From NCBI GenBank assembly GCA_016783715.1, contig JADHWA010000001.1, forward strand, positions 118 to 64,117: a stretch of 64,000 nucleotides of DNA. The letters run 5' to 3'. The translations under genes were made by a program, and so were the position numbers. The notes under the pieces are model-generated. The model had not been told where the DNA came from. It worked only from the letters and a program-made list of their open reading frames with translations, and searched no databases. Source of the DNA: Candidatus Omnitrophota bacterium. Lineage in GTDB: Bacteria; Omnitrophota; Gorgyraeia; Gygaellales; Profunditerraquicolaceae. Shown one piece after another: positions 4,943 to 64,000 of the stretch. Numbering within the stretch: the stretch's first letter is position 1; each line of letters begins with the position of its first letter.

Positions 4943-5120
4943 TTAATGAGCGCATAACTTAGCGAAGCTAAGTTATAGCGTCCGTTATTTTACTTGTATA
5001 TAAGCGTGCGCGAATTAACCCAGCACTTATTTGGCATGTGCTTAGCATTCAACAAATAAGTGCTGGGCAAATTCCCCCGCACCCAAACAAGTAGTAGTAT
5101 ACACTTGACTGGGTGCGGGG
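4943..5120. repeat. type-A three-hairpin intergenic repeat element (fills the prmC stop to murA start spacer)
   Basis: hairpins ATAACTTAGC-GAA-GCTAAGTTAT, CCCAGCACTTATTTG..CAAATAAGTGCTGGG, CCCCGCACCCA..TGGGTGCGGGG; linker GCGAATTAA; termini AATGAG / TCATTT. Confidence 0.7.
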
Positions 5121-6043: not shown

Positions 6044-7106
6044 CCTCTGCTGCCTTGATCAGAGCCAGAGAGACCTCATCAAGATCACCATCAAGCACTG
6101 CTTCTAATCGATGTATGGTAAAATTAATCCGATGGTCAGTAACCCGGCGGTCCGGAAAATTATAGGTACGGATCTTCTCGCTGCGATCCCCGGTACCGAT
6201 CTGTGAACGCCTCTCCTGGGAGACCTTCTTAGATTCCTCATGTTGTTTGGCATCCAGTAGGCGGGCGCGCAGTATACGCATTGCCCTAACTTTGTTTTTT
6301 CCCTGAGAACGCTCATCCTGACAGGCTACTACCGTACCGGTGGGGATATAGGTAATTCTCACTGCCGAATCAGTCTTTTGCATATGTTGGCCGCCGGGGC
6401 CGCTGGAGCGGTAAGTATCGATCCTCAGATCTTTGGCATCGATCTTTAAGTCTACTTCCTTAGGCTCAACCAGCACCGCTACCGTGGCCGTAGAGGTATG
6501 TATCCTCCCCTGCGCTTCGGTAACCGGAACACGCTGCACCCGGTGGACACCGCTTTCAAATTTAAGCCTCTTATAGGCATTCGGCCCTTTTACGCTAAAA
6601 GATACGTCTTTAAATCCCCCTGACTCATTGGTACTAGCTGACATCAACTCGACCTTCCACCCTTTATTGGCGGCATATTTTGTATACATCCGGTAAAGAT
6701 CAGCGGCAAATAGACCAGCCTCGTTTCCTCCGGTCCCCTGCCTGATCTCAACGATCAGATCCCTGCCCAAATCCTTGTCTTCTCCGGAAAGCATCTTCTT
6801 CAGGCGCTGCTGGAGGTCAACCCTCTTATTATTTAATTCCTCCGTCTCCTTTCGGGCCAGCTCCAGAAATTCTTCATCATGCTTCTCCTCTAAAACCTTT
6901 GCCAGATCGAGGATCTCGGCCGACACCCGCTGATACTCTAGAAACAACGCTACCGGCCCCCTAAGAGAAGCCATCTCCTTTGCGTATTTATTACACTCCT
7001 CCCTGTTTGAAATCACCTCAGGAGAAACTAAGAGCGCTTCCAGTTCCTGATATCTTTTTTTCATTGTTTCCAGCTGCTCGAACATAATAGTAAAACTCCC
7101 TGGCAC
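6009..7106 (-). CDS. prfA: peptide chain release factor 1
   Basis: GGQ motif ([10 protein letters not shown]), PVT tripeptide region, RF1 length. Confidence 0.9.
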
Positions 7107-7133
7107 CTACCTACTATCTACTAACTACTGATT

Positions 7134-7343
7134 TTAGTCTTTCTTTTTCTTCCCATATTTCTTCATATATTTATCTACCCGGCCTGCTGAATCAACGAAT
7201 TTCTGCTTACCGGTAAAGAAGGGGTGGCAGTTGGAGCAGACCTCCACTCTGATGTTCGGTTTTGTCGAGCGGGTATGTATGGTATTCCCGCAGGCACAGA
7301 CCACTACGCTATCCTGGTATTTTGGGTGAATCTTATCTTTCAT
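7134..7343 (-). CDS. rpmE: 50S ribosomal protein L31
   Basis: MKDKIHPKY..Cxx[14 protein letters not shown]. Confidence 0.85.
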
Positions 7344-7486: not shown

Positions 7487-8743
7487 TTACTGGTTCATAC
7501 TGTTTAAAAACTCTTCATTATTCTTTGTTTTACTCAGCTTGTCGATCAAAAGCTCCATTGCCTCGACATTATTTAATTCATTAAGCACCTTTCTTAAGAT
7601 CCAGGCCTTCTGCAGGATATCAGGCTTAAGCAGCAGCTCCTCATGACGGGTATTGGAGCGCTTGATATCGATTGCAGGATAGATCCTCCTCTGGAATAAA
7701 TTCCTATCCAGCTGCAATTCCATATTGCCGGTACCTTTGAATTCCTCAAAGATAACCTCATCCATACGGCTGCCGGTGTCCACCAGAGCTGTGGCGATGA
7801 TGGTCAGACTCCCCCCCTCCTCGACTGCGCGCGCAGCACCGAAGAAACGCTTAGGCTTCTGCAGGGCATTGGAATCTATACCTCCGGATAACACCTTACC
7901 GCTATGCGGGATAACCGAGTTGTATGCCCGGGCTAAGCGGGTAATACTATCCAGGAGGATTACTACATCCCGCTTATGCTCAACCAGTCTCTTGGCTTTC
8001 TCTAATACAACCTCGGCAACCTGAACATGCCTCTCCGGCGGCTCATCGAAAGTGGAAGATATGACTTCCCCCTTGACGCTTCGCTGCATATCGGTAACCT
8101 CCTCCGGACGTTCATCGATTAACAGGACTATCAGAATACAATCGGGATTATTATTCACTATAGCGTTGCCGAGCTTCTGCAATAAAACGGTCTTGCCGCT
8201 GTAGGGCTGTGCGACGATCAGTCCGCGCTGCCCCTTCCCGATAGGAGTCAAGAGATCCATGATCCGCATCGAGGTCTCTTTGGGGGTAGTCTCTAAGACA
8301 AAATTTTCCCTCGGGTAGATAGGCGTAAGGTTATCAAAGAGGATCTTATCTTTTGATTCTTCGGGATTCTCGAAATTCACCGCCTGGACCTTAAGCAGGG
8401 CAAAGTACTTCTCTCCCTCTTTCGGAGGACGTATCTCACCGCTTACGGTATCACCGGTCTTAAGGTCGAATTTCCTTATCTGCGAAGGTGATATGTATAT
8501 ATCGTCCGGGCAGGGCAGGTAATTGTAGTTAGGAGAGCGCAGGAAACCAAACCCCTCAGGAAGGATCTCTAAGATCCCCTCTCCGAACATCAGGCCTTCT
8601 TTTTCTGCCTGCCCCTGAAGGATCTTAAAGATCAGCTCCTGTTTTTTCAGTCCGCTTATTCCGTTTACACTGAGCTCTTTGGCGCGTTTATTGAGCTCGG
8701 TTATCTTCATATCTTTTAACTTTTGGATATCTAATTTTTCCAC
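7487..8743 (-). CDS. rho: transcription termination factor Rho
   Basis: N-terminal rho domain, Walker A GKT, RecA-like core; GTG start with AGGAGG 6 nt upstream. Confidence 0.9.
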
Positions 8744-14107: not shown

Positions 14108-14119
14108 TTATTTGATTTT

Positions 14120-14147
14120 ATTATACATCCGAATACTGTATGGTCAA
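14120..14147 (-). promoter_or_regulatory. sigma70-like promoter candidate (TTGACC-16-TATAAT) for the TPR gene
   Basis: the -10 lies 12 nt upstream of the ATG; the -35 overlaps the first repeat of the upstream array. Confidence 0.5.
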
Positions 14148-14300
14148 GGAAAATTTACCTCTGGTAACAAGGAATTTTCCTTGATCTTGAGCAACGGAAG
14201 AGCGAAAGATCTCAAGGAAAATCTACACCTACATAGCCCCTCTCTCCTTGATCTCGAGGAGCAAAAGCGACGAGAGATCTCAAGGAAAATTTACCTCTGG
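14142..14300. promoter_or_regulatory. 68-bp periodic repeat array: TCAAGGAAAAT(T/C)TAC at 14144, 14212 and 14280, with inverted partners (CAAGGAATTTTCCTTGA, CCTTGATCTCGAGG)
   Basis: direct repeats exactly 68 bp apart, each with a dyad half-site; sits immediately upstream of and overlapping the -35. Confidence 0.55.
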
Positions 14301-14309
14301 AGACAGAGA

Positions 14310-16490
14310 TTACATCATCGGATCCATCTCTAAGGCCGGATGTTTTAGCTTCTGTAATGACTCCAATAGCTGCTCAGAAGTAGTTGTGGTTGTTTCATCT
14401 GCGATTTTTTCGATCAGATCCGGCTGGCCAAGCTCTTCGGCCCTCTTCTTTAATTTATCCCCCAGGAGTTCTTTGAGCTCCTTAGGCATCCAGAGCAGCC
14501 GTTTTAGCCCTCCTTCAGCAGAGATGAATTTCTTACTTACAAGGTATAATTTTCCTACACCTAAAAATCCGGGAGTCTGGACCCCGCCACCAACTGACCC
14601 GGCAAGAGTAGTAAAACTCATCCCGCAGGGGGTCATCCCGGAATAATCACGATGCACTACCATTACCCCGTTTGCTTCAGGAATAATTGCTACAATACAT
14701 TCAAAGCAGCCGCAGGAAGATTGCGGAGAGTCCATCAGCGAATACATACTCACTTTCTCTATGGTTTTATTTGATTTGCTGTAGAAGAATTCATTAATAT
14801 CTTTCCACTGTCCCAAATTCTGATCAACTACCGCTCCTTTAGCGACAGGTTGATTCGGTCCGGTAGGCGTAATCTCATAAGAAGCCTTCCCGTCCAGCCA
14901 GGAATAAGCCCCACATAGCCCCAGCCGCTCAGGAGTAATCATACAGACATGATTAGGAGCAAAGCTCTGACAGAGTGTACAGCTATAAAAGGTATCTACG
15001 CTCTCATCGGTCATTCCTCTTAAACGCTCGTCGCGCTCTTTAAAGGTATTACTGGCCTCTGCTAATAATTTTTCGAGATCCTCCTGCTTGGTATAGATTT
15101 TTATCTGCACCTTATCTACGATTGCGCTATACTCCTGATGCAACATCGCATGCAAGATCACGCCGATATGTTTAAGCCGGAATCCTTTACTGAAGGCCTC
15201 CTGAGAAACCCTGATCCAATTCATATCTCTCTGGCCCACATGCATCAGTCCCATAGCATAATTTACGAAACGATGGATCTGTCGCTCCAGAACAGGCTCA
15301 AAATCCTTCTGCATCTTACGTCCGGCGACTTCCACAATCAAGGCCAAAGGCATGGATTTTTTCCCCTTCTCAGGCTGATCTATATCAGGACCGATAATCT
15401 CGATCTTGCCGTCAACGACTTGATCCATATCTTTCATCGTCAGGTACTCAAATGCCTGTCCTGATTTACCCCCAAACTCAAGCTGAAGCTGCTCTTTACG
15501 CACACGCTCCCCCTCAAAAGCCGCTGCATAGGATACCGGCACTGCGATATTACTGACCTTGACCTTAACTCCCCTTACCTCGATACAGCGCGGGACTATT
15601 TTTTTATGATCCAGTTCCTTAACCAGGGCTTCATAGACGGTTATCCCGGAAGGCTTGATCTCGGGTATATCGGTATCAGCGATAATCGGAAAACCCATAT
15701 TGATCGCTCCGGCTCCGGTGGCATATTTAATATCATCCAATTCCCCCAAAACCAGCCCAAAGGCAAATACGCGTTCCTTTGTATAGAGAAGACACTTCTC
15801 GGCCTGGCCAGGCTTAATACCTCCGAAGGTCAGAGCCGAGCGAATTGCCCAATTCAAAGGATAGATACCGGAGATGGTATCCCGTCCGTATGGAACGATA
15901 TAATTATCCCACCCCATCTGGACATTCTCTTCTATTAACTGGTCAATTATTGAACGTCCGTTTACCGATGAACCGACAAATGCCAGGATATTTCTCTGCT
16001 GAAGCTCTCGCACAATCTTTACCGCTGTCTGATTATCCGGGGCGGCACCCAATATCGCAGCAAACCCGGGCATGCGCCCATCAACCAGCTGGATCCCCAG
16101 TGAACGCATAATAGTATCAGTAAAGAAGCCATTGCAATCTTTCTGCGGTTCCTGCTGATATAGATAACGGAGTGCTACGATTATCTCCTCAGAGAAGAGT
16201 GTGGCCATTCCGGCGTTTAGGGCATCCCCTAAATAAGGAAGCCATACTTTATCTGCCGGCACCTGAGGCAACAAACTCTCGGCATGTTTAAGGATAGCTA
16301 TGGCGTCCTTTAAGGTTTCAACCTTCACTCCCAAAAGCGCATTGGCCATAGGCATGTAAAATGCGGTCTCGGGAAATTCTATCCTTTGACTCTCTCCTTT
16401 TTCTTTAATCGCTTTATCCAGGAAATCAGATGCCTGCTTAAAGACCTCCCGGGATCCTCTAATAACTGCCTCAGCTACTATTTTAGACAT
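14310..16490 (-). CDS. acsB: CO-methylating acetyl-CoA synthase subunit (CODH/ACS alpha, AcsB)
   Basis: Near-collinear with Moorella AcsB: GKIEIIGPDIDQ, TFYSCTLCQSFAPNHVC, CGCFECIVAI, TPGFLGVGK, IADETT..HPALEMDPMM. Confidence 0.9.
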   Translation of the reverse strand: MSKIVAEAVIRGSREVFKQASDFLDKAIKEKGESQRIEFPETAFYMPMANALLGVKVETLKDAIAILKHAESLLPQVPADKVWLPYLGDALNAGMATLFSEEIIVALRYLYQQEPQKDCNGFFTDTIMRSLGIQLVDGRMPGFAAILGAAPDNQTAVKIVRELQQRNILAFVGSSVNGRSIIDQLIEENVQMGWDNYIVPYGRDTISGIYPLNWAIRSALTFGGIKPGQAEKCLLYTKERVFAFGLVLGELDDIKYATGAGAINMGFPIIADTDIPEIKPSGITVYEALVKELDHKKIVPRCIEVRGVKVKVSNIAVPVSYAAAFEGERVRKEQLQLEFGGKSGQAFEYLTMKDMDQVVDGKIEIIGPDIDQPEKGKKSMPLALIVEVAGRKMQKDFEPVLERQIHRFVNYAMGLMHVGQRDMNWIRVSQEAFSKGFRLKHIGVILHAMLHQEYSAIVDKVQIKIYTKQEDLEKLLAEASNTFKERDERLRGMTDESVDTFYSCTLCQSFAPNHVCMITPERLGLCGAYSWLDGKASYEITPTGPNQPVAKGAVVDQNLGQWKDINEFFYSKSNKTIEKVSMYSLMDSPQSSCGCFECIVAIIPEANGVMVVHRDYSGMTPCGMSFTTLAGSVGGGVQTPGFLGVGKLYLVSKKFISAEGGLKRLLWMPKELKELLGDKLKKRAEELGQPDLIEKIADETTTTTSEQLLESLQKLKHPALEMDPMM

Positions 16491-17748
16491 ACAGCTTCTC
16501 CTTATCTTTCACAAGATCCATGATATCAGGATATCCAAAGTTATCTTCCAACAATTTATCACGCAAAGTCGATACATCAATTCTCTCTCTGATCAATTTT
16601 AAAAATAAGCCGCTACTATTGATATTCCCCACCAGAACCGCCCCCACCAGTAAATTATTCTGCAAGACTACCTTTTTATATACATTAGCACCCCGGTCAT
16701 AGGTCTTGAGCTCAAGGTAGCCCTGAAGGTCTTTTAAGTTATAGATCCCCAAAGATACTGTGGGAAGCCCGAAGAACTCCAGCGAATTCATAGCTACCGA
16801 GCCGTCATATTGAATCTTCTCTCCGGCCATATTGCTGCCTGCGACCTTCCCCTGCTCTACGGCAACCGGCCATAATGCATTTACAGCTAATTTACCCAGC
16901 GTCAGATCAAAACTCTCGGCACAATCTCCGGCAGTATAAATATTTTCTATGTTTGTAGCCAGGGTATTGCCGGAAATTATCCCCATCCCTGTTTTAATAT
17001 CGGTATTTTTGACTAAGTCTATATTCGGCGATACACCCTTGCCGACGATCACCAAAGATGCCCCGATGGCCTTTCCAGAATCAAGTTTTACCGCCTTGAT
17101 CTCTTTTTCTTCCCCGATAATCTCTGAGACCCCTTCTCCTAAGACCACCTCGATACCGTTATCCTCCAGTTTCTTTTTTACTAAACCGGCTGCCTCGGGA
17201 TCCAATATCTGTGATAATACCTGGTTGCTTCTTACGATAACTTTTACATCTACGCCTCGCTTTTTTAAGGCGTAGGCAACCTTCAGGCCTACTAAACCGC
17301 CGCCTAAAACACAGGCAGATTTTGTAACCGCCAACAACCCGTCAATATCCATTGTATTCTTTAAGGTGCGAAAGCCAAATACGCCGGTCTTTTTGATCCC
17401 CTTGGTATCGGGGAATTTTGGCGAGGCTCCGGTTGCAATAAGCAGGGAGTCATAGTCAAATGCGCTCTTATCCTGACAGACGATACGGTTCTTTTTAGGG
17501 TCAACCCGGGTTACTTTTTTATTTAAAATAAGTTCTATATTATTATCTTTGTAGAAACTCTCCGGCCGGTATAAAATCTTCTCTTTCTTAACATCACCCG
17601 CCAGATAGTAAGAGATCAGGCAGCGGCAATAAGAAGGATGCTCTTCATCCGAGAGAACGATAATCTTGGAGTCTTTATCCCTGCTTCTTATCGCCTCAAC
17701 CGCCGAGAGGCCTGCGGCTGAATTCCCTATAATTACGAACTGCTTCAT
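16483..17748 (-). CDS. FAD/NAD(P)-dependent pyridine nucleotide-disulfide oxidoreductase (CooF-associated)
   Basis: VIIGNSAAG dinucleotide fold plus a second GGGLVG fold; sits after cooS-cooF as in clostridial and Carboxydothermus CODH loci. Confidence 0.7.
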   Translation of the reverse strand: MKQFVIIGNSAAGLSAVEAIRSRDKDSKIIVLSDEEHPSYCRCLISYYLAGDVKKEKILYRPESFYKDNNIELILNKKVTRVDPKKNRIVCQDKSAFDYDSLLIATGASPKFPDTKGIKKTGVFGFRTLKNTMDIDGLLAVTKSACVLGGGLVGLKVAYALKKRGVDVKVIVRSNQVLSQILDPEAAGLVKKKLEDNGIEVVLGEGVSEIIGEEKEIKAVKLDSGKAIGASLVIVGKGVSPNIDLVKNTDIKTGMGIISGNTLATNIENIYTAGDCAESFDLTLGKLAVNALWPVAVEQGKVAGSNMAGEKIQYDGSVAMNSLEFFGLPTVSLGIYNLKDLQGYLELKTYDRGANVYKKVVLQNNLLVGAVLVGNINSSGLFLKLIRERIDVSTLRDKLLEDNFGYPDIMDLVKDKEKLYV

Positions 17749-18194
17749 ACTTTAACCTCTGCTTCCTCACACCAGATGATCGCCCCTGTTGGACAGGCCT
17801 TCACGCATGCCGGTTCATCCTTATCCTGGCATTTATCGCAACGGATAGCCAGTTTTGTCAAAATATTTGGTCTTATCGCCCCGTATGGACAGGACATCAC
17901 GCACATCCAGCATCCTACACAGCGCTCCTGGTCATAGACAACCATATCTTTCTGGTCATCACGATATAATGCTGCGGCCATACAGGCATCAACGCATTTA
18001 GGCTCTTTACAATGCCTGCAGGAGACAGGATAATTATTACCCTTGCTGGAGTGGACTTTTTTTCTGGGTAAAGATTTCTTCTCTTCCTTAATCGCCTTAA
18101 ATATATCCTGGGTTAGCGAGTGTGCCAGGCTACAGGCGAGCTCGCAGGACTTGCATCCTAAACATTTTTTTACATCATAATAAAGCTTCTTCAT
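17745..18194 (-). CDS. cooF: CODH-associated 4Fe-4S ferredoxin
   Basis: four CxxCxxCxxxCP clusters; the track N-terminus MRSF arises from the repeat element, likely start MKKLYY at 18194. Confidence 0.75.
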   Translation of the reverse strand: MKKLYYDVKKCLGCKSCELACSLAHSLTQDIFKAIKEEKKSLPRKKVHSSKGNNYPVSCRHCKEPKCVDACMAAALYRDDQKDMVVYDQERCVGCWMCVMSCPYGAIRPNILTKLAIRCDKCQDKDEPACVKACPTGAIIWCEEAEVKV

Positions 18195-18296
18195 AAATGA
18201 ACGCATAACTTACGATCCGCCGCAGGCGGAGAGTAAGTTATATGCGTGAATTTATTCCCGGGCTCTGGTGGTGCGCAAAGGAAGCCCGGGAATCTC
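18194..18296. repeat. type-B two-hairpin repeat element (cooS stop to cooF start)
   Basis: TAAATGAACGCATAACTTAC..GTAAGTTATATGCGTGAATTTATTCCCGGGCT..AGCCCGGGAATCT. Confidence 0.7.
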
Positions 18297-18308
18297 CTAC
18301 TTATCAAT

Positions 18309-20222
18309 CTAACCGTTCTGATACATCATCGGCTTGAGCTTCAGGCCCTGGCGTTTTTTGTCGATATGCGCGATCATAAGATGAGCCGCCTTTATCGGAT
18401 CTACCTCAAAAGCGAATTTTCCTCCTACTATATTCTCTAAATCCTTAGTAATAAAATCAGTAACCTTCTGACTTCCTAAAACCGGCTGTGGCGTGCCAAA
18501 AACAGTAAATACCCCACTGGCTACAAAATAGAAACCGATAGAGATAGCTTTTTCACTCATCCATTCAGGGGCTGCCCCTGCTACTGGCAGGTCACTTAAA
18601 GATTCACCCAATCCGCCTTCTTCGACGATTTTAGAGCAGGCAATCAAAATTCTGGAATTATCTACGCAGCTGCCTACATGTAAAACCGGAGGAATGCCTA
18701 CGGCTTCGCAGATCTCCCGCAACCCATTACCGGCAAATTTAAGAGCTGCCTCAGGCTTAAGCAAACCCATCTTGGCATTAGCTATTGCGGAGCAGCCAGT
18801 CACGACTACTAAAACATCATTCTTAATCAACTCTTTGACCATTTCTGTATGGCCAAAATCATGGCGGACATTAGGATTATTGCAGCCCACTACTCCGGCC
18901 ACCCCCCTTAATCTACCGGAAATTATCCCTTCGTTTACAGGTTTCCAGGTTGATCGGTATTTACCTCCGATTATATAAGGAATATCCTCAGCGGTAAAAC
19001 CGGCCACTAAATCCATTGTTTCCTGAGGTATCACTACCCGTTCCTTCCTGCGATTCTTAAAATTCTCCACAGCTCTTTTAATAATCGTTTTTGATATCTC
19101 CATGGCTCTCTTCTCGTCAAATCCAATATGTGTTACCCCGGGAAATTTTGCTTTGGGGCTAGTAGTAATCAACTCAGTATGGAAACAATTAGCCAGCTCC
19201 GCTAAAGCAGGCATAATGCACTGCACATCAACCATCATTAACTCTACCGAACCTGTAAGAATCGCCAATTCCTGCTGCAGGAAGTTACCCGCTGAATGGA
19301 TACCGTGGCGCATAAGCATCTCATTAGCCGTACAGCACATCCCTACGATATTTATCCCCTCTGCGCCGTTCTTCTTTGCCAGCTTGATCAACTCAGCATC
19401 CTCTGCGGCCTGGACAACTACGTCGGACAGAGTAGGCTCATGTCCATGCACTACAACATTTACGTAATTCTCCTTTAATACTCCCAAGTTTACCTTTGAT
19501 TTGATGGGATTGGGGGCGCCGAATAAGATATCGCTCAACTCTGTAGCAATCATCGAACCGCCCCAACCGTCAGATAAAGCAGTGCGCAGCCCGTGCATAA
19601 TGATGTTCTTATAATCATTATCTACGCCCATGTGTGTACGATGCATACACTCAACAATCTCACGGTCAATTCCCCGAGGGGTAACCCCCAGCTTCCGCCA
19701 GAGATCCTGGGTTTTCTTTGGTGCGCGGGAAATAAACCGCAGTTCACCCTCTTGCTGCCCAAACTCAGACAAAGCCTTCAAAGCCACCTCGCCGGCGATC
19801 TCCAAATCCTTCTTACCATCAAGTTTGATTCCATACAGCGTGGCAATCTCCCTTAATCTTACCGGATTATTGACCCCGTAATCATGTGCTTTGCCTTCGG
19901 CTGCCAATAACAGGGCCTCGGCGATATCTCTTCCATGATCAGAATGAGCAGCCGCTCCTGTGGCGATCATCCTTAAAAGATTGCGCGCTACGATAGTGTC
20001 AGCGCTGGCCCCACAGACACCCTTCTGCGGCCCCTCGCCAAAAGGATCGATACGGCACGGCCCCATATTGCAAATACGGCAACAAATTCCCAGCTGACCA
20101 AAGCCACATTGTGGCTGCATAGTATCATAACGATCCCAGACAATTTTTATATTTTGAGCCTCGGCCTGCTCAATCATCTGCTGACTGGCAACATCTACAC
20201 TTTTTTGCTTTGCATCACTCAT
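18309..20222 (-). CDS. cooS: anaerobic carbon-monoxide dehydrogenase catalytic subunit
   Basis: CGFGQLGICCRICNMGPC N-terminal cluster motifs, about 630 aa, Ni-CODH family. Confidence 0.9.
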   Translation of the reverse strand: MSDAKQKSVDVASQQMIEQAEAQNIKIVWDRYDTMQPQCGFGQLGICCRICNMGPCRIDPFGEGPQKGVCGASADTIVARNLLRMIATGAAAHSDHGRDIAEALLLAAEGKAHDYGVNNPVRLREIATLYGIKLDGKKDLEIAGEVALKALSEFGQQEGELRFISRAPKKTQDLWRKLGVTPRGIDREIVECMHRTHMGVDNDYKNIIMHGLRTALSDGWGGSMIATELSDILFGAPNPIKSKVNLGVLKENYVNVVVHGHEPTLSDVVVQAAEDAELIKLAKKNGAEGINIVGMCCTANEMLMRHGIHSAGNFLQQELAILTGSVELMMVDVQCIMPALAELANCFHTELITTSPKAKFPGVTHIGFDEKRAMEISKTIIKRAVENFKNRRKERVVIPQETMDLVAGFTAEDIPYIIGGKYRSTWKPVNEGIISGRLRGVAGVVGCNNPNVRHDFGHTEMVKELIKNDVLVVVTGCSAIANAKMGLLKPEAALKFAGNGLREICEAVGIPPVLHVGSCVDNSRILIACSKIVEEGGLGESLSDLPVAGAAPEWMSEKAISIGFYFVASGVFTVFGTPQPVLGSQKVTDFITKDLENIVGGKFAFEVDPIKAAHLMIAHIDKKRQGLKLKPMMYQNG

Positions 20223-20239
20223 ATGATTAACCCCCTACT

Positions 20240-21109
20240 TTATAAACCTGCCGCATCTAATACTAGCGGCACTTTGGTATCCCAGCCGATTGGCATTATA
20301 TGCATACCCTGACAGATCGGCTTCATAGCCTTAATTAGCCCGGCGGCAATCTCAACTGAGACGGCCACTTTATCTTCTGCTTCCTGCATCTTCTTAATCA
20401 ACTCATCCGGTACGGTTACCCCGGCAACATTCTTATTCATATATTTAGCCATACCGGCTGACTTTAACAATACAATGCCCGCCATCACCGGAACTTTTAG
20501 ATGTTTTGTTTTATTTATGAAGTCTTCGAATATCTTTAAGTCATAGACTGCCTGGGTCTGGAAAAACTGGGCACCGGCCTCTATCTTTTGCTCCATCTTG
20601 ATAATCTGGGGTTCCAAAGGATCTGCCCCGGGGTTTACTACCGCTCCCATACAAAACTTTGGCGGGGCACCGGTAAGTTTATTATCCTTCATATCAACTC
20701 CTGTCTGTAGCTTACTTGCTACCTGTAGGAGCAAGACAGAATCCAGATCAAAGACCGGCTTTGCCTCGGGGTGGTCACCTAAGGTGGTGTGATCTCCGGT
20801 AAGAAGCAATAGATTCTCAATCCCCAAACTTGCGGCTGATAGTAGATCTGATTGCAGGGCCAGGCGATTTCTGTCACGGCAAGTCAGCTGAAAAATCGGC
20901 TCAAACCCTTTTTGCTTTAAGAGTGAACAAACCGCTAAAGACCCTAAGCGCATCACCGAACTCTGAAGGTCGGTAACGTTAATCGCATCCACACGGCTAC
21001 GGATCAGCTCGGCGTCCTCTAAGAGTTTAGCGGTCTCAATACCCTTGGGCGGACCGATCTCCGAGGTCAATAAAAACTTCCCTGATTGTAGTTTTTCCTT
21101 AAATGACAT
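20240..21109 (-). CDS. metF: methylenetetrahydrofolate reductase
   Basis: MTHFR fold, SEIGPPKG..LTGD..; sits in the Wood-Ljungdahl methyl-branch block. Confidence 0.8.
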   Translation of the reverse strand: MSFKEKLQSGKFLLTSEIGPPKGIETAKLLEDAELIRSRVDAINVTDLQSSVMRLGSLAVCSLLKQKGFEPIFQLTCRDRNRLALQSDLLSAASLGIENLLLLTGDHTTLGDHPEAKPVFDLDSVLLLQVASKLQTGVDMKDNKLTGAPPKFCMGAVVNPGADPLEPQIIKMEQKIEAGAQFFQTQAVYDLKIFEDFINKTKHLKVPVMAGIVLLKSAGMAKYMNKNVAGVTVPDELIKKMQEAEDKVAVSVEIAAGLIKAMKPICQGMHIMPIGWDTKVPLVLDAAGL

Positions 21110-21951
21110 TAAAGCTGTAATTTGGTGGCGGCGACAAGGTTGCGCATTAACATGGTAACGGTTAACGGGCCGACTCCGCCGGGAACTGGCGTAATATATG
21201 AGGCCTTTTTTTCGGCTGTCTGAAACTCTACATCTCCGACAATTTTACCTTCAATACGGTTTATCCCCACGTCAATTACTATCGCACCCTCTTTAATCCA
21301 ATCACCTTTAATAAGGTTAGCTTTACCTACTGCGACGATCAGAATCTCAGCGCGACCGACATGCTCCTCTAACTTTTTTGCCTCCGATGTCCCGATGTGA
21401 CATACTGTTACCGTAGCAAACTTCTCCAATAACAGAAGGGCCAGGGGTTTTCCGACAATCTCGCTATGGCCGACAACGACCACTTCCTTCCCGCGCAGAT
21501 TGATCTTTATACTTTCCAATAACTCCATCACCCCAGCCGGAGTACACGGCAGGATTCCCGCTTTACCGAATACAATCTTGCCGATATTCGCCGGATGCAT
21601 CCCCTCCACATCCTTCTCTGGAAGTATAAATTCACTAATCTTCTTGTAATCAATCTGCTCCGGAAGTGGCATCTGAATAATAATACCATTCACCGCTTTG
21701 TCGCGATTCAGTTTCTCGATAAATTCTATCAAAGAACTCTCTGCGGTAAGAACGTCCAGCTGATGAAGCTGGTAATTAATACCTAATCCTTCTGCGGTTT
21801 TGGTCTGTGATTTTACATAAGCCAGGGCTCCGGGATTATCCCCCACAATGATACTGGCTAAGACAGGCTTTATCTCCAACCCCGCGACTTCCTGTTTTAT
21901 CTCTTCCTTTATCTTTGCTGCGATTGGCTTACCCTCTAATAATTGCGCCAA
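21109..21951 (-). CDS. folD: bifunctional methylene-THF dehydrogenase / methenyl-THF cyclohydrolase
   Basis: LEGKPIA..VGDNPGA..GGVGPLTV motifs. Confidence 0.9.
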   Translation of the reverse strand: MAQLLEGKPIAAKIKEEIKQEVAGLEIKPVLASIIVGDNPGALAYVKSQTKTAEGLGINYQLHQLDVLTAESSLIEFIEKLNRDKAVNGIIIQMPLPEQIDYKKISEFILPEKDVEGMHPANIGKIVFGKAGILPCTPAGVMELLESIKINLRGKEVVVVGHSEIVGKPLALLLLEKFATVTVCHIGTSEAKKLEEHVGRAEILIVAVGKANLIKGDWIKEGAIVIDVGINRIEGKIVGDVEFQTAEKKASYITPVPGGVGPLTVTMLMRNLVAATKLQL

Positions 21952-22492
21952 CTTTCTCCTCCGTTTTAAGTCTGATCCTTTTTACTCTTCGATTCTTCTG
22001 TAATAACTCTTTTCTTACCTTGTGAGAGAAATCTTTGTCTTTGAGGTATTTTAAATTAATCTCTACATTGTAATATGCCGCACTAAAACCCGACTCAAGG
22101 AGTACCGCTGCCACCACCACATCACTGATTAAATTCCTGTTGGATTTTTCGATTAATGACGGGCACAACCTGATGGCTTCGTAGCATAACCTGCATACCA
22201 TAAAGGGTACATTTAAAGCGCTCCTGATATTCTTGCTCTTATAAGCGGCAACATCAAGATCCACTAAATTCAGGAATTCCTTCTTTAGGTTTTCTGCGCG
22301 CAGAAGTATCTCTTTTAGCTCTTTCTGGTGTTTTTCGTATTTAGGCTTGCCGAGGGTAAAATTCACCACCATACTGACCAGCGCCACCCCTAAAGCAGCC
22401 GTTAACGCAGCCGCAGAACCTCCGCCTGGGGCAGGAAGCTTGGCTGAAAGATGATCAAGATATTTCTGCAAAGATTCATGTTTATATTTCAT
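21929..22492 (-). CDS. fchA: methenyl-THF cyclohydrolase / cyclodeaminase-family protein
   Basis: PAPGGGSAAALTAALGVAL, characteristic of the FTCD C-terminal / FchA family. Confidence 0.7.
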   Translation of the reverse strand: MKYKHESLQKYLDHLSAKLPAPGGGSAAALTAALGVALVSMVVNFTLGKPKYEKHQKELKEILLRAENLKKEFLNLVDLDVAAYKSKNIRSALNVPFMVCRLCYEAIRLCPSLIEKSNRNLISDVVVAAVLLESGFSAAYYNVEINLKYLKDKDFSHKVRKELLQKNRRVKRIRLKTEEKVGAIIRG

Positions 22493-24183
22493 GATAATCC
22501 TGTAATATTGCCTCCAGAGTCAATATCTATTCTTTCGCCGGCCGGATGAGTCGGTAATCCCGGCATGGTCTGCATCGTGCCACAGAGAGGATAAAGGAAT
22601 CCGGCTCCCACAGAGGCACGAATATCCCTTATCGGCAGGACGAAATGTCTTGGTCTTCCTTTAAGCTCTGAATCATGCGATAGCGATAGATGAGTCTTGG
22701 CCATACAGATAGGTAATTTATTATAACCTCTTTTTGTAAAAAGAGTAATTTTTTCATCAGCTAGGGGCCCATATTCCACATCCTTGGCCCCGTAGATCTT
22801 TGTGGCGATTGTTTTAATTTTATCTTTAATTGAAGTATCCAAAGGATAAAGAAACTTGAATTTGCTCTTTAGCTTGCTTGCGCTTACAACTGCCCTGGCT
22901 AATTCGGTGCCGCCTCCAGAGCCTTTTGAAAAAACCTCACTTACCACACAATCATGGGCGCCGAATTCTCTGGCCATCTTCTTTACACATTCAATCTCAT
23001 TCTCTGTATCGTGAGCAAATTTATTTATCGCTACAACAACCGGAACGCCGAAGATTCTGACATTCTCAATCTGCTTCTCTAAATTACAGATCCCTTCCTT
23101 GATTGAAGGAATATCCTCCCTCTGTAGGCAGGCATCCAGCGGTCTACCTGCGACGATCTTGAATCTGCCGCTGTGGGACTTAAGCGCCCTAATAGAACAG
23201 ACTACCACTGCCGCATCGGGAACCAGGCCGCTGGCGCGGCATTTAATATCAAAGAACTTCTCAGCCCCGCAATCTGCTCCAAACCCCGCCTCGGTGACAA
23301 CATAATCCGAAAGTGCCAGGGCAATTCTATCCTGTATTATGGAGCTGTTTCCGTGGGCGATATTGGCGAATGGTCCGGCATGCACAAAACAAGGGGTGTG
23401 CTCTATGGTTTGAATCAGGTTAGGCATTATCGCATGTTTCAGGAGTGCGGTCATGCTCCCTGCCACCTTTAAATCTTCTGCGGTTACCGGCTTACCACTG
23501 GTTGTGTCTGCCAGCACGATTTTACCGATACGCCCCCTGAGATCCTTTAAGTTCTTGCTTAAGGCCAGGATCGCCATTATCTCACTGGCGACGGTGATAT
23601 CGAATCCTGTATCGCGCGGGATACCGTTATTCTGACCTCCCAGCCCTATCTTTACATGCCTTAGGAATCTGTCGCTGACATCGACAACCCGGCGCCAATG
23701 AATCCTCTCGGGATTAATCTTAAGATTATTTCCTTTAAAGTAAGAGTTATCAAGGAACGCCGCTGCTAAATTGTGTGCAAGTCCGACTGCATGGACATCA
23801 CCGGTAAAATGCAGGTTAAAATCTTCCATGGGAAGTACCTGCGAGTAGCCTCCGCCTGCAGCACCACCCTTGATCCCGAATACCGGCCCCAAAGACGGCT
23901 GCCTGATACAGGTTGAGGTCAACTTACCTATTCTACTCAAAGCCATTGAAAGCCCGATAGTAGTAACGGTCTTTCCTTCGCCCAATGGCGTGGGGGTAAT
24001 CGCGGTAACTAGAATATATTTACCCCTGGGACGGTTTTTGATTTTATTTAAAATCTCCAGATCTATCTTGGCGATGTATTTGCCCTGGGGGATAAGAAAC
24101 TTTTTGTCGATCTTAAGTTTCCTTGCGATCTTCTCGATGGGTTCTTTTTTTGCTTTTTGGGCGATTTGAATGTCTGAGTGCAT
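22489..24183 (-). CDS. fhs: formate--tetrahydrofolate ligase
   Basis: TPTPLGEGKTVTTIGL P-loop, FTHFS length. Confidence 0.9.
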   Translation of the reverse strand: MHSDIQIAQKAKKEPIEKIARKLKIDKKFLIPQGKYIAKIDLEILNKIKNRPRGKYILVTAITPTPLGEGKTVTTIGLSMALSRIGKLTSTCIRQPSLGPVFGIKGGAAGGGYSQVLPMEDFNLHFTGDVHAVGLAHNLAAAFLDNSYFKGNNLKINPERIHWRRVVDVSDRFLRHVKIGLGGQNNGIPRDTGFDITVASEIMAILALSKNLKDLRGRIGKIVLADTTSGKPVTAEDLKVAGSMTALLKHAIMPNLIQTIEHTPCFVHAGPFANIAHGNSSIIQDRIALALSDYVVTEAGFGADCGAEKFFDIKCRASGLVPDAAVVVCSIRALKSHSGRFKIVAGRPLDACLQREDIPSIKEGICNLEKQIENVRIFGVPVVVAINKFAHDTENEIECVKKMAREFGAHDCVVSEVFSKGSGGGTELARAVVSASKLKSKFKFLYPLDTSIKDKIKTIATKIYGAKDVEYGPLADEKITLFTKRGYNKLPICMAKTHLSLSHDSELKGRPRHFVLPIRDIRASVGAGFLYPLCGTMQTMPGLPTHPAGERIDIDSGGNITGLS

Positions 24184-24188
24184 GAGGT

Positions 24189-24527
24189 CTAGTAGGAGTA
24201 GTGGCCGCCTAAACTAAAGGCATCTCTAATCAGCCTGATCTGCGGCCTCTGGTCTAAATATGTTATAGATAAAACGTCAAACCTTAATTTCTGAGAATTT
24301 AATTTCTTATCTTTAAGATATGCAAGAGCTGTCTTGGTAATATGCCTCTTTTTTAAATCTGTTATTGCTTCCTCCGGAAGTCCGAATCTAGCGCTCCTGC
24401 GGGCCTTAACTTCAACGAAACAGATAGTTCTTCTTTCTGAGGCAATGATATCTATTTCTCCGAATCCACACCGGTAATTCCTGGCTATTATTCTGTAGCC
24501 GTTTTTTTGAAGGAACTCTGCTGCCAT
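24189..24527 (-). CDS. yraN: UPF0102 / YraN-family endonuclease
   Basis: AAEFLQKNGYRIIARNYRCGFGEIDII..FVEVKAR; start trimmed to the internal ATG at 24527 to avoid overlap with rnhB. Confidence 0.7.
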   Translation of the reverse strand: MAAEFLQKNGYRIIARNYRCGFGEIDIIASERRTICFVEVKARRSARFGLPEEAITDLKKRHITKTALAYLKDKKLNSQKLRFDVLSITYLDQRPQIRLIRDAFSLGGHYSY

Positions 24528-24561
24528 GCTCTCTGTGCAGGTAGCAAGCCTCAGTCGTTCT

Positions 24562-25164
24562 TTAGACACAGGAGAAACTCTCCCTGTGCAGAAAACAACG
24601 ACCATGCTTCTCTATGGCCTGCCTGTGCCTGGCGGTTGGATATCCCTTATTCTCTATGAAGCCGTAATCCGGGACTATCCGGTCGTATATACCCATGATC
24701 CTATCGCGGACGACCTTGGCGATAATCGAAGCAGAAGCAATAGCCAAGGAGCGCGAATCACCCTTGGTAATACTTAAAAAGGGGAGAGCCAGATCAAGCT
24801 TCATCTGGCCGTCAACCAGACAAAAGCAGGATTTCTTCTCTTTGCTCTCTAATTTCTGCATCACTGAGGAGACTGCCTCCTGCATAGCCAGCCGCGTAGC
24901 CTCCAGTATATTAATCCGGTCTATCAACTTCTCGTTGACTACGCCGATACCAAAGATCACCTTGCTGACTAATACGGAAAATGCCTCTTGCCTTTGCAAA
25001 GAGCTGAGTTTCTTGGAATCGTCTATACGGCAGCCAAAAGAGAAATCTTTTAATGCTGCAGCTGCCGCTACCACCGGGCCTGCCAGAGGGCCTCGGCCCA
25101 CTTCATCCACCCCGATGATATAATCAAATCCTTTTTTTTTAAATTTTCGCTCGTAATAGAGCAT
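24562..25164 (-). CDS. rnhB: ribonuclease HII
   Basis: IIGVDEVGRGPLAGPVV; start taken as the ATG at 25164, 1 nt after the rplS stop. Confidence 0.85.
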   Translation of the reverse strand: MLYYERKFKKKGFDYIIGVDEVGRGPLAGPVVAAAAALKDFSFGCRIDDSKKLSSLQRQEAFSVLVSKVIFGIGVVNEKLIDRINILEATRLAMQEAVSSVMQKLESKEKKSCFCLVDGQMKLDLALPFLSITKGDSRSLAIASASIIAKVVRDRIMGIYDRIVPDYGFIENKGYPTARHRQAIEKHGRCFLHRESFSCV

Positions 25165-25165
25165 C

Positions 25166-25534
25166 CTAAGAGGGCGGATTCTCTTTCTTAGTTTTTGATG
25201 CAATCTTGGTTGCGCGCTTGCCAACTTTGCCGCGTAGATAATAGAGCTTTGCCTTCTTTACCTTGCCGGAACGGCTAATCTCGATACGCTCGATGCTCGG
25301 CGAATGAAGCGGATAGACGCGCTCTATACCCTCTCCGTAAGAAACCTTCCTTACTGTAAAGCTCTCTTTTACTCCTTTGCCTTTTTTGGCGATCACTACC
25401 CCCTCAAAGGGGTGCAATCTTACCTTATCGGGTCCTTCGGGGATCTTGACTAAAACTTTGACCGTATCCCCTACATTGAACTTAGGCATATCTTTCTTTA
25501 AATATTCGGATTCAATAAGTTTAATTTTATCCAT
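25166..25534 (-). CDS. rplS: 50S ribosomal protein L19
   Basis: [20 protein letters not shown]. Confidence 0.9.
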
Positions 25535-25541
25535 TGCTTGT

Positions 25542-26249
25542 TTACTGCTCCTTTCGCTTTCTTCTAAGATTAAGGAGGTCAGGCCTTCTCTTCCTCGTCT
25601 TCTTTAATGCCTCTTTCCTCCTCCAATCTTCTATTTTCTTGTGATTACCTGCTAGAAGTATTTCCGGAACACACATCCTGCGAAAATTTGCGGGCCTGGT
25701 GTACTGCGGATACTCTAATAGATTACCAACGAATGACTCAAAATTCAAGGAATTTTTATCCCCTAATACCCCAGGGATAAGCCGGATAATCGAATCTACC
25801 AGGACCATTGCCGGCAGCTCACCTCCGGTCAGAACATAATCTCCAATTGAAATCTTCCTATCCACAAGATATTTTCTGACACGCTCATCTACGCCCTCAT
25901 AACGACCACAGATTAAGATCAGATGTTTCTTTTGGCTTAAGGTTTTGGATAACTTCTGGCTTAAAACCTCTCCCTGAGGACACAAGAGGATAACCTCGGG
26001 CTTATTTTTGGATTTTACCGACTTAATTATTGACTCAACTGCCCGGAAGATAGGCTCTGCATTCATTACCATCCCCGATCCGCCGCCAAACGGGCGATCA
26101 TCGACCTTGCGGTGCCGGTCTAAGGTATAGTCGCGCAGATTGTGTACGTGAATCTTAACTTTTTTACTAGCTTGAGCCCGCTTGATGATCGACTCATTCA
26201 ACACCGGCTCAAACATCTTTGGGAATATAGTAATAATATCTATGCGCAT
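25542..26249 (-). CDS. trmD: tRNA (guanine37-N1)-methyltransferase
   Basis: [15 protein letters not shown] knot motifs. Confidence 0.9.
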
Positions 26250-26327
26250 AATTTTTTAGTAGATAGTATGTAGTAGTTAGGGTTTAGGGTGACTTTTTCC
26301 TTCCTACCCCTACATTCTACCTACTAT

Positions 26328-27437
<1,110 letters not shown>

Positions 27438-37260: not shown

Positions 37261-37345
37261 AATGAACACATAACTTAGCGAGTAATAGCGAAGCTAAGTT
37301 ATAAGTGTGAATTGAATCCGCCAGGCTTTGTGGCGGATAAATGTT
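37261..37345. repeat. type-B repeat element (proS 3' end to rimP start)
   Basis: AATGAACACATAACTTAGCG..CGAAGCTAAGTTATAAGTGTGAATTGAATCCGCC..GGCGGATAAATG; the second hairpin is inside proS coding sequence. Confidence 0.65.
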
Positions 37346-53555: not shown

Positions 53556-53655
53556 TAAATGAGCACATCACTTAGCGAGCACTAGCGAAGCTAAGTGATA
53601 AGTGCGAATTAATCCCGGGACTCCATATCTTAATATGCGGAGGCCAGGGATCTTC
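53556..53655. repeat. type-B two-hairpin repeat element flanked by the 31-bp duplicated clpP 3' end
   Basis: TAAATGAGCACATCACTTAGCG..CGAAGCTAAGTGATAAGTGCGAATTAATCCCGGGACTCC..GGAGGCCAGGGATCT; the stem carries the compensatory pair AACT>CACT / AGTT>AGTG. Confidence 0.7.
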
Positions 53656-62347: not shown

Positions 62348-64000
62348 CTACAAAATGCCCTCTGCTATCTTAAGGAGATCATCAACTGTAACCGCCTTTA
62401 AACACTCAAAGCCCTTCAAGCAATTGTGCGCCAGACAATGGCTGCAACCTACATCTTTATGCAAGAAATACCCCCTGCTGCCGACCGGGCCCCAGCGCTG
62501 CGGGCTTAAACCCCTCTGGGCACGCCCAAAGATAGAGATCACCGGCACCCCGACTGCCGAGGCGATATGCACAGGACCTGAATCATTGGAGATAAATAGA
62601 CTTGCCCTTTTTAAGACGCTGGCTAACTGGCTTACTGATGTCATACCGGCTAGATCAATTGCCCGTACATGCATACGCCTGGTAACCCGCGCGGCCACAG
62701 CGGTATCTTTGGCCCCGGCGACAATTATAACCTTCAGGCCGTATCTCTTGCTCAAGTTATCTGCCACCTCGGAGAATCGCCCTGCCGACCAGACCTTTGA
62801 AGGACAGCTTGCACCGGGATGGATCACCAATATTTTATCTTTGGCGGTAACCTTCTCTCTGCTCAATAACTCCCTTAACCACGCTTGGGAGGTCTCTTTG
62901 ATCGGCATATACAACTGCCTATCTTTGGCCTCTATACCAAGGCGCCTCAATAAATCCAGGTTATAATCTAACTCGTGTTTCTGGCCAAATTGCTTAAGAT
63001 GCCTGACTCTCTCTGTAAGCAGCCATCCCAGCTTGCGATTCCAACCTACCCTCCTCTTGATCCCGGCGAAGAATGTCACCAGGTGCATGCGGTTAGTCGG
63101 ATGGAGAATAACCGCAGCATCGAACCTCTTCTTCTTAAGGGCCCGGGCGAACTTCATTGAATTATACCAGCTTTTATGTAAGGCAAACTTATCATAAATT
63201 ATAACTTCATCCAGATAGGGATTCCCGTCGACTATATCCCTGGCGCCGGGGGCGACAATCATCGCAATATAGGCATGAGGATACTCATCCCTTAGGCTCT
63301 TAATCACCGGAGTGGATAATACCACGTCTCCGAGCCTGTCTGTCCTGACGATCAAGATTCTTTCTAGGCGCATCTTTTTCCCAGCAGGCACTCCTGGGGA
63401 CTCTTCTAAAAAATTACCTGAGGCCCCCAACATCCTCTTTGCGACTACAATCACATCCCGGGTCTTGACTGCAGCAATACAATTCAGGGTACCGAGGCGG
63501 CATTGGGCTTTTTCACACGGCCGGCAGAAAACCTCCTTCTTGACCAGAGAGGAGTAATCCGACCAGGGGCCGTATTTTTTTTCGTTAGTAGCGCCAAAGA
63601 CTGCCAACACCGGCAGATTCATATAGCTGCCCATGTGGAGTGCGGCACTATCATTGGTAATCAGAAGATTGGCCCGCTGCAACAGATATGCCAACTCGGC
63701 CAGATTAGTCCTGCCGCAGAGGTCGATCACCGGATAGCCGCAGTGCCGCCTGATGTACTCTGCGATTGACGAGTCATTTTTGTCGCCGACTAAGGCTACA
63801 CTTACCGCCAACTCTTTTATCAATAAAAAGATAAGCTCGGCAAACTTATCCTTTGACCATCTCTTAATATGACTCCTTGCCCCCACTGAGACCACAACTA
63901 ACCTGCCGGAAGGCTTGATTCGGCTATCGGCAAGAAGATTATTAACGCGTAACTTATCCTCAGGCCCGATAAAAAGGCTGGTCTCCCTGATATCACCCCG
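62348..64000 (-). CDS. tandem GT9 heptosyltransferase (ADP-heptose:LPS heptosyltransferase domains fused; 5'-partial, continues past the window end)
   Basis: complete GT9 from the internal MRLERILIVRTDRLGDVV (ATG 63373), preceded in frame with no stop by the C-terminal half of another GT9 that reads open to 64000. Confidence 0.7.
   Translation of the reverse strand, partial: RGDIRETSLFIGPEDKLRVNNLLADSRIKPSGRLVVVSVGARSHIKRWSKDKFAELIFLLIKELAVSVALVGDKNDSSIAEYIRRHCGYPVIDLCGRTNLAELAYLLQRANLLITNDSAALHMGSYMNLPVLAVFGATNEKKYGPWSDYSSLVKKEVFCRPCEKAQCRLGTLNCIAAVKTRDVIVVAKRMLGASGNFLEESPGVPAGKKMRLERILIVRTDRLGDVVLSTPVIKSLRDEYPHAYIAMIVAPGARDIVDGNPYLDEVIIYDKFALHKSWYNSMKFARALKKKRFDAAVILHPTNRMHLVTFFAGIKRRVGWNRKLGWLLTERVRHLKQFGQKHELDYNLDLLRRLGIEAKDRQLYMPIKETSQAWLRELLSREKVTAKDKILVIHPGASCPSKVWSAGRFSEVADNLSKRYGLKVIIVAGAKDTAVAARVTRRMHVRAIDLAGMTSVSQLASVLKRASLFISNDSGPVHIASAVGVPVISIFGRAQRGLSPQRWGPVGSRGYFLHKDVGCSHCLAHNCLKGFECLKAVTVDDLLKIAEGIL

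Follow-up and report, generated by a model that had tools for sequence, protein, structure and literature searches.

Gene Content of the Wood-Ljungdahl Block

The object of this study is a block of twelve genes on a contig of a Candidatus Omnitrophota bacterium (GenBank assembly GCA_016783715.1, contig JADHWA010000001.1), in which genes of the Wood-Ljungdahl (WL) pathway follow directly on housekeeping genes. We analyzed a stretch of 64,000 nucleotides of this contig (hereafter, the window) by open reading frame (ORF) calling and by NCBIfam and Pfam searches of the encoded proteins, and all 61 window genes were scanned. On the minus strand, the block reads trmD, rplS, rnhB, yraN, fhs, fchA, folD, metF, cooS, cooF, a FAD/NAD(P) oxidoreductase gene (FNOR) and acsB (Table 1); a previous reading made from the letters alone (the sequence-only reading) had proposed these identities in this order, and the searches agree with it throughout. 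The twelve ORFs (12/12) are intact, and the metal-cluster ligands of the carbon monoxide dehydrogenase (CODH) and of the acetyl-CoA synthase (ACS) are kept. The methyl branch of the pathway is complete in the block, comprising Fhs, FchA/FolD and MetF. Upstream of trmD lie tgt, queA, queH, ruvB, scpA, trpS, infB, nusA, rimP, proS and lipopolysaccharide genes, and downstream of acsB a gene for a TPR protein, polA, glgA, coaE, rho, rpmE, prfA, prmC, murA and trp genes.

Both catalytic subunits of the CODH/ACS system look canonical. AcsB residues 11–726 align to the Moorella ACS (1OAO/1MJG, E ~1e-210), as the sequence-only reading had stated for an end-to-end alignment, and residues 9–726 to the Carboxydothermus ACS; alignments to the solved ACS structures from Carboxydothermus, Clostridium autoethanogenum and Moorella run approximately end to end with about 700–718 bits. 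The A-cluster motifs CxxC...C, GLCGA and SCGCFEC are kept, and near-identical homologues carry the domains PF18537, PF03598 and PF19436. CooS aligns over its full length with solved Ni-CODHs, with 6T7J as the best PDB match (763 bits) and, among the ACS-bound CODHs, the C. autoethanogenum enzyme 6YTT as the closest (682 bits); its B-, C- and D-cluster ligand motifs (CC..C..C, HGH, CC, QC, GC, GC, SC) match those of 6T7J/6YTT. The window AcsB matches more than 120 database clusters at 81% identity or above, and nearly all of those with an organism name are labeled Omnitrophota/Omnitrophica. Published work already attributes the WL pathway to this phylum, in lineages with and without CooS (PMC10066038; PMC8542988; PMC11484514).

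The remaining components are absent from the window. Among its 61 ORFs, there is no AcsC/AcsD (PF03599), AcsE (PF00809), RACo or CooC-type ATPase, so that the previously claimed absence of acsCDE and cooC holds for the entire 64 kb. The window AcsB is identical to the NCBI protein MBL7069850.1 from a Candidatus Omnitrophota metagenome-assembled genome (MAG), and the source record has a length of 64,239 bp, almost all of which is covered by the window; acsCDE thus cannot sit just beyond the window on the same record. No formate dehydrogenase was found among the window ORFs either, in line with the absence of this enzyme from the Omnitrophota genomes encoding the pathway (Seymour et al., 2023; PMC10066038), and no metV (DUF5981) adjoins the window metF, a gene which sits beside metF in three relatives (L086, L087 and L089 in our numbering of loci). 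Some candidates were discarded: the 269-aa and 459-aa ORFs downstream of acsB, of the size of AcsE/CooC and AcsC, are the TPR protein and GlgA, and a GT9 heptosyltransferase at the right end of the window, considered as a marker of the acsE-panB-...-GT9 arrangement found in L086/L087, is only 28% identical and a paralogue.

Table 1. Genes and intergenic features of the block and its borders (positions within the 64,000-nucleotide window).
Feature	Position	Strand	Basis
trmD, tRNA (m1G37) methyltransferase	25542-26249	-	NF000648, 329 bits; first gene past the 78-bp tgt-trmD gap; position conserved in relatives
rplS, ribosomal protein L19	25166-25534	-	TIGR01024, 143 bits
rnhB, RNase HII	24562-25224 (longest ORF)	-	NF000595, 198 bits
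yraN (UPF0102) family protein	24189-24605	-	NF009154, 116 bits; stop 5 bp ahead of fhs start
fhs, formate-tetrahydrofolate ligase	22489-24183	-	NF010030, 795 bits
fchA-like methenyl-tetrahydrofolate (THF) cyclohydrolase (FTCD_C)	21929-22492	-	PF04961, 171 bits; NF045657 150 bits, below cutoff
folD, methylene-THF dehydrogenase/cyclohydrolase	21109-21951	-	FolD models, ~327 bits
metF, methylene-THF reductase	20240-21109	-	PF02219, 116 bits
cooS/acsA, Ni-CODH catalytic subunit	18309-20222	-	TIGR01702, 684 bits
Strain-specific insertion	18195-18317	-	GC hairpin 18257-18290 and hairpin-family repeat 18195-18253
cooF-like 2x[4Fe-4S] ferredoxin	17745-18194 (longest ORF to 18206)	-	PF13247 Fer4_11; HydN/DmsB-type matches
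FAD/NAD(P) oxidoreductase (FNOR; Pyr_redox_2 + Rubredoxin_C)	16483-17748	-	Pfam; best NCBIfam PadH-like, 299 bits, below cutoff
acsB, acetyl-CoA synthase, full length with N-terminal CODH-binding domain	14310-16490	-	NF040764, 1039 bits
acsB-TPR spacer, 202 bp	14108-14309	-	Long hairpins 14246-14285 and 14172-14223
tgt-trmD spacer, 78 bp	26250-26327	-	~70-nt 'TAGTAG' hairpin, fold -25.1 kcal/mol

Conservation Across Omnitrophota

A scan of the GTDB species representatives with AcsB yielded 80 loci (60–83% identical, mostly Omnitrophota), whose surroundings (±10 kb around acsB) were annotated by local ORF calling and BLASTP against the window proteins. The order queA-tgt-trmD-rplS-rnhB-yraN-fhs-fchA-folD-metF-cooS-cooF-FNOR-acsB-TPR-polA-glgA-coaE-rho-rpmE-prfA-prmC-murA is conserved in much of the phylum, and yraN is followed directly by fhs, fchA or folD in 24 of the 25 loci containing yraN. 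Downstream of acsB, the TPR gene or polA comes next in 35/80 species (TPR-type), and acsC, RACo or acsD in 23/80, including two closed genomes. Within 10 kb of acsB, none of the 35 TPR-type species carries acsC, acsD, acsE or RACo, while three of them (L021, L026, L027) possess a cooC gene before cooS, after metF. The 23 loci adjacent to the corrinoid Fe-S protein (CFeSP) genes encode, according to Pfam, acsC (FeS and CdhD domains), RACo, a CooC-type ATPase, acsD and acsE, and the series cooS-cooF-FNOR-acsB-acsC-RACo-(cooC)-acsD-acsE is found in the closed genomes CP070837 and CP070780 as well as in several other contigs.

Two relatives connect both arrangements: L047 (trmD-rplS-rnhB-yraN-fhs) and L043 (rnhB-fhs) have the housekeeping genes upstream plus acsC downstream, and the upstream housekeeping junction therefore predates the loss of the acsC-acsE part. 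The full cluster is likely to represent the ancestral state, and the arrangement of the window a derived, truncated one, judging from these gene orders. In the neighbor-joining tree of AcsB, the TPR-type loci form two clades, whose nearest acsC-adjacent relatives are L032/L087 and L072. The separation of the ACS from its corrinoid partners, stressed by the sequence-only reading, holds for the window lineage as a derived condition; relatives, closed genomes among them, keep acsC-RACo-cooC-acsD-acsE beside acsB.

The order cooS-cooF-FNOR is kept in 14/35 TPR-type and in 7/23 CFeSP-adjacent loci with enough upstream sequence, and is the normal upstream neighbor of acsB in Omnitrophota. It had been likened to the modules thought to pass electrons from CO to NAD(P)+; gene order and domains do match, but the trio is a standard acsB neighbor here and not a stand-alone CO-oxidation module. 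Sister lineages have neither cooS nor cooF, and present metF-acsB instead.

The WL block of some close relatives also contains small lineage-specific insertions (L001, at 7799–8720, L021, L029 and L006), such as an esterase gene separating folD from metF, genes for an Imm-NTF2-2 immunity-like protein and a 152-aa ORF separating cooF from FNOR, or signaling proteins after acsB; the block thus tolerates interruption. The AcsB proteins of the two closed genomes, CP070837.1 (L084 6227–9991, 1254 aa) and CP070780.1 (L085 6164–9991, 1275 aa), harbor an intein with a LAGLIDADG homing-endonuclease domain, which is inserted within the C-terminal part of acetyl-CoA synthase.

A Separate Locus With the Corrinoid Half

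Searches for AcsC seeded by L032 and P0127 collected ~185 AcsC proteins. Of seven gene contexts inspected, six adjoin acsB; the seventh (L091), from a short contig, has an integrase fragment upstream. When metagenomes were scanned with an AcsC alignment, a further clade emerged (L099, L100, L102, L104, L105, L111, L121, L125, L130, L135, L142, L147), 57–79% identical internally and with no more than 65% identity to the ~185 proteins from the homology searches, with a characteristic N-terminus, which is monophyletic and nested among Omnitrophota AcsC in a neighbor-joining tree. NCBI labels members of this clade as Candidatus Omnitrophota (MDD5252476.1, MFA5230996.1), and the GC content of their loci (0.38–0.47) is similar to that of the window (0.46).

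These acsC genes occupy another co-directional housekeeping array, which contains precisely the genes that the window lacks, namely gatC-gatA-gatB-ctpA-polysaccharide deacetylase-tsaD-mgtC-bactofilin/HTH-HTH-LarB-like AIRC protein-(FmdE-domain protein)-acsC-RACo-cooC-acsD-acsE-(tilS)-ftsH-folP-pdxJ. This context recurs in two lineages whose AcsC share 67% identity; in one of them, the contig measures 606 kb. No acsB was found within 10 kb on either side of the separate acsC in L130/L172, and none in L135 and L178/L179, where the flanks are shorter. The genes upstream were considered as a membrane hydrogenase or Mrp complex, and Pfam assigns them instead to gatCAB, ctpA, tsaD and other housekeeping functions. 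A ~222-aa AIR-carboxylase-domain (LarB-like) protein always precedes the separate acsC locus (L172 9327–9998; L178 7378–8444; L102 168–1339), and is followed in most lineages by a 133–143-aa FmdE-domain protein; both may assist the corrinoid half as additional partners in the handling of cofactors or metals.

Among published data, Seymour et al. (2023; PMC10066038) reported WL genes with "AcsB-E" in these lineages and counted QZM4-1-127 and QZM4-1-77 among the families with the most complete pathway. In our reading, the family names come from the MAGs QZM4_1.bins.127 and QZM4_1.bins.77, whose loci (L017, L019) are TPR-type with cooS; the "AcsB-E" scored in these lineages gives independent support to the reading that acsB-TPR genomes carry the separate locus. 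The sequence-only reading had proposed to locate acsC, acsD, acsE and cooC elsewhere in the genome, and this search was successful at the level of the phylum, where the separate locus was found, but did not tie it to the genome of the window.

A Pathway Probably in Two Halves

We consider it probable that the block represents the first half of the Omnitrophota WL supercluster, belonging to an ordinary WL pathway whose corrinoid half is not missing, having moved to a second housekeeping locus. By homology, Fhs activates formate, FchA/FolD and MetF reduce it to methyl-THF, and CooS, acting as AcsA, reduces CO2 to CO for AcsB. The gene context suggests that CooF and the flavoprotein may connect the CODH with the pools of ferredoxin and pyridine nucleotides. 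The proteins for methyl transfer (AcsE and AcsC/D), reactivation (RACo) and Ni insertion (CooC) would be encoded at the second locus. Apart from formate dehydrogenase, the pathway is thus probably complete. In keeping with published accounts of the phylum, it would produce acetyl-CoA from formate and CO2/CO or take up electrons during fermentation.

Historically, the ancestral cluster would have run on from acsB into acsC-RACo-cooC-acsD-acsE, until a rearrangement in the window lineage cut off the acsC-acsE half; most likely, this half would now be the one in the array gatCAB-ctpA-tsaD-...-LarB-like-FmdE-acsC-RACo-cooC-acsD-acsE-tilS-ftsH. That acsB-TPR genomes carry the separate acsC locus is likely, and the simplest reading of the sequences compared. 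The neighborhood with trmD-rplS-rnhB-yraN would reflect streamlined head-to-tail packing on one strand, inherited vertically across the phylum, and read-through transcription from upstream is possible.

Several observations speak against this interpretation. A comparison of accession numbers and sample identifiers did not place the acsB-TPR locus in one genome with the separate acsC locus, and both homology searches with AcsC gave mostly acsB-adjacent genes, the split clade coming only from the metagenome scan. With neither cooC nor metV in the window, the contig alone does not account for CODH maturation or for the electron partner of MetF. The trees are neighbor-joining trees of single proteins, without support values. 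Finally, consensus promoter and terminator scans of the window were at chance level overall (for promoters, 30 found vs. 24.4 expected in shuffles).

Packing, Boundaries and Alternative Explanations

The contig is packed in the same manner over its whole length: all the genes (61/61) lie on one strand, 95% of the sequence is coding, and the gaps between neighboring genes have a median of 5 bp, with 32/60 junctions measuring 10 bp or less. Every ORF of at least 60 aa is on the minus strand, save two short plus-strand ones which are probably spurious. From acsB to trmD, the gaps between the longest ORFs are -8, -4, 102, 17, -1, -23, -4, 5, -44, -59 and 7 bp, and hence the 5-bp gap between yraN and fhs and the tightness of most other junctions (9/11 at 10 bp or less) are as previously described. 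The real start of rnhB is probably downstream of the longest-ORF start, near 25164 (the gene call in L184 is of 200 aa), and that of yraN probably downstream as well (126 aa in L184). Over its entire length, the contig keeps a negative GC skew (-0.08 to -0.22), and neither Rfam families nor tRNAs were found in the 64-kb window.

At the borders of the block, the acsB-TPR spacer is likely to be the end of the WL unit, as its sequence features indicate; a TTGACC-16-TATAAT match is located at 14120–14147, 12 nt ahead of the ATG of the TPR gene. The same spacer contains a direct repeat, TCAAGGAAAATTTACCTCTGG, at 14144–14169 and 14280–14305, together with the two hairpins and the -35/-10 pair. On the other side, the tgt-trmD spacer coincides with a TAGTAG-rich intergenic repeat (26257–26340), of which a related copy is found at 7098–7136, between rpmE and prfA.

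The most serious competing explanation, which we regard as possible and clearly weaker than the two-locus interpretation, is a functional superoperon, in which trmD to acsB would form one conserved transcript keeping C1/acetyl-CoA metabolism in step with translation and tRNA-modification genes. The adjacency of yraN to the WL genes in 24/25 loci and the short junctions just described fit such a unit, as do the lack of a strong terminator-like site between yraN and fhs and the position of the clearest boundary-like signals, which lie outside the block, in the spacers flanking acsB and trmD (14108–14309 and 26250–26327). However, the equal packing of the whole contig does not single out this junction; the 5-bp distance is therefore no evidence of a special fusion, and the close co-linear spacing with trmD-rplS is characteristic of the genome as a whole. 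In addition, rpsP and rimM of the canonical trmD operon (rpsP-rimM-trmD-rplS) are not in the window, where tgt and queA lie upstream of trmD instead, and insertions are tolerated both in relatives (L001, L021, L029) and in the window itself, by the 120-nt hairpin insertion between cooS and cooF. Of the former description of a pathway embedded in a ribosomal/tRNA-modification operon, the conserved junction is borne out; the operon itself is less well supported than it was presented, with contig-wide packing and no rpsP-rimM.

A different proposal concerns the flavoprotein. In a second Omnitrophota clade without cooS and cooF, a ~300-aa Pyr_redox_2 flavoprotein gene stands between metF and acsB in at least seven species (L058, L063, L065, L066, L071, L077, L083; e.g., L066 9012–9920), its product being devoid of Rubredoxin_C and 28–33% identical to the window FNOR. 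Its retention in the absence of cooS and cooF suggests, from gene content, a role not tied to the CODH, and the metF of the window clade has lost metV. It is conceivable, although we find it rather doubtful, that the flavoprotein acts as an electron donor or acceptor for MetF or in the reductive activation of ACS. If so, trmD...metF-(cooS-cooF)-FNOR-acsB would constitute a minimal C1 module under constitutive read-through, in which methylene-THF reductase would have a new redox partner.

Degeneration of the pathway is unlikely. Under this explanation, the corrinoid protein, the methyltransferase, RACo and CooC would have been lost, and AcsB/CooS would be remnants or serve another role, e.g., CO handling. 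It would account for the absence of acsC, acsD, acsE, RACo and cooC from 64 kb, for the want of the first four around acsB in the 35 TPR-type species (three of which keep cooC), for the failure of the two AcsC searches to give an obviously matching large clade, and for the further loss of cooS and cooF in the sister metF-acsB lineages, suggestive of ongoing erosion. Nevertheless, AcsB is full length with all its A-cluster ligands and 81–96% identical across more than 100 relatives, indicating strong purifying selection, and the complete methyl branch is kept beside it; moreover, a separate acsC-RACo-cooC-acsD-acsE locus labeled as Omnitrophota exists, and AcsB-E are scored as present in these families by Seymour et al. 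(PMC10066038).

A recent horizontal acquisition of the WL block as a unit, inserted into the housekeeping array, is very improbable: WL clusters do move between phyla, and similar ones occur in MAGs labeled Planctomycetes, Elusimicrobia or "Clostridia", but many of these odd labels are MAG-level names of uncertain quality, GC content (0.44–0.47) and skew are uniform over block and flanks, no integrase, tRNA or flanking repeats are present, and the insertion point is common to species with AcsB only 60–83% identical.

The Repeat Element Between cooS and cooF

The only wide gap inside the block, the 102-bp spacer between the longest ORFs of cooS and cooF, contains the repeat element mentioned by the sequence-only reading. 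It belongs to an insertion of ~120 nt, which gives cooS two extra codons and puts a hairpin directly before the cooF start at 18194; alignment to L184 and L001 sets the ATG at this position as the true start, giving a protein of 149 aa. L184, with an AcsB 96% identical, is the closest relative for which the gene context is available; only 2 nt separate its cooS stop from its cooF ATG and the insertion is absent, which makes it strain-specific.

The repeat at 18195–18253 belongs to a hairpin family of the pattern 'TATAACTTAGC...GCTAAGTTATG', given in another form as 'AATTCRCRC.TATAACTTAGC...GCTAAGTTATGYGYTCATT'. The family gives seven matches in the window against 0.69 expected. Copies of ~55–60 nt lie on the minus strand at 4945–5005, 18195–18253, 37261–37320 and 53558–53617, with a weaker one at 63940–63956; their arms TATAACTTAGC / GCTAAGTTATG are conserved, a short GC hairpin usually precedes each copy, and the hairpin folds range from -17 to -27 kcal/mol. 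The copies sit upstream of the first gene past a larger intergenic gap (murA, cooF, rimP and aminotransferase/serA), and an ATG within the 3' arm of the repeat makes the longest-ORF starts wrong. The family could be a mobile element of the type of repetitive extragenic palindromes or miniature inverted-repeat transposable elements (REP/MITE-like), or a structure of the 5' end of mRNAs; several intergenic hairpin copies and presence/absence between close strains, as in REP/MITE-like elements, are both observed.

Comparison With Known Systems

The nearest counterparts are the full Omnitrophota clusters (CP070837.1, CP070780.1 and JABMQJ01, i.e., L054), which have the same folD/metF-cooS-cooF-FNOR-acsB order as the window, with CooS 60–73% and AcsB 67–70% identical. 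In L054, fhs-fchA lie upstream as in the window, and a cooC gene precedes cooS, unlike in the window. After acsB, the full clusters run on into acsC-RACo-cooC-acsD-acsE, whereas the window continues with TPR-polA. Other differences are the metV gene before metF in the full clusters L086 and L087, and the intein in AcsB of the closed genomes, neither of which the window has.

With the classical acs clusters of acetogens (Moorella thermoacetica, Carboxydothermus hydrogenoformans CODH-III/ACS, Clostridium autoethanogenum), the window shares homologous AcsB and CooS with the same metal-cluster motifs. Unlike in them, acsA and acsB are non-adjacent, with cooF and FNOR in between, acsC, acsD, acsE and cooC are lacking from the cluster, and there are no formate dehydrogenase or metV/hdr partners nearby. 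The reportedly incomplete WL pathway of Dehalococcoides mccartyi, which Zhuang and co-workers are said to have described in 2014, keeps AcsB and the corrinoid protein and lacks CODH, MetF and AcsE; it offers a precedent of a truncated pathway with AcsB, relevant to the sister metF-acsB clade without cooS, whereas the window has both CODH and MetF.

The CooS-CooF-FNOR clusters of Clostridium ljungdahlii/autoethanogenum (cooS1) and Geobacter sulfurreducens present the same three-gene order and domains (PMC6344411). In the window, by contrast, the trio is internal to a WL/ACS cluster, conserved as such across the phylum, and hence represents the ACS-associated CODH and not a separate CO-oxidation unit. 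A division of the acs genes has also been described in gut Oscillospirales, where acsCDE are split from cooS/acsB (PMC11338639): in their cooS-cooC-acsB arrangement, CODH and AcsB are together, acsCDE are elsewhere or not in the context, and formate dehydrogenase is commonly absent. These bacteria belong to another phylum, cooC and not cooF-FNOR lies between cooS and acsB, and the genes are not placed among translation and DNA-repair genes (PMC11338639).

Significance

All the parts of the block are canonical, and no new enzyme or mechanism is revealed by it. Its interest resides in the arrangement: in the literature searched, we did not find described the fusion to a housekeeping array, the conserved split in two halves or the stepwise trimming in sister lineages. 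For annotation, the window is a warning that a single contig is no ground for calling a pathway incomplete. For the biology of the phylum, it shows how a core carbon-fixation pathway is laid out in a streamlined uncultured lineage, inherited within long housekeeping arrays on one strand, with the cluster cut into two conserved halves and the sister lineages progressively trimmed of cooC and metV, and then of cooS and cooF.

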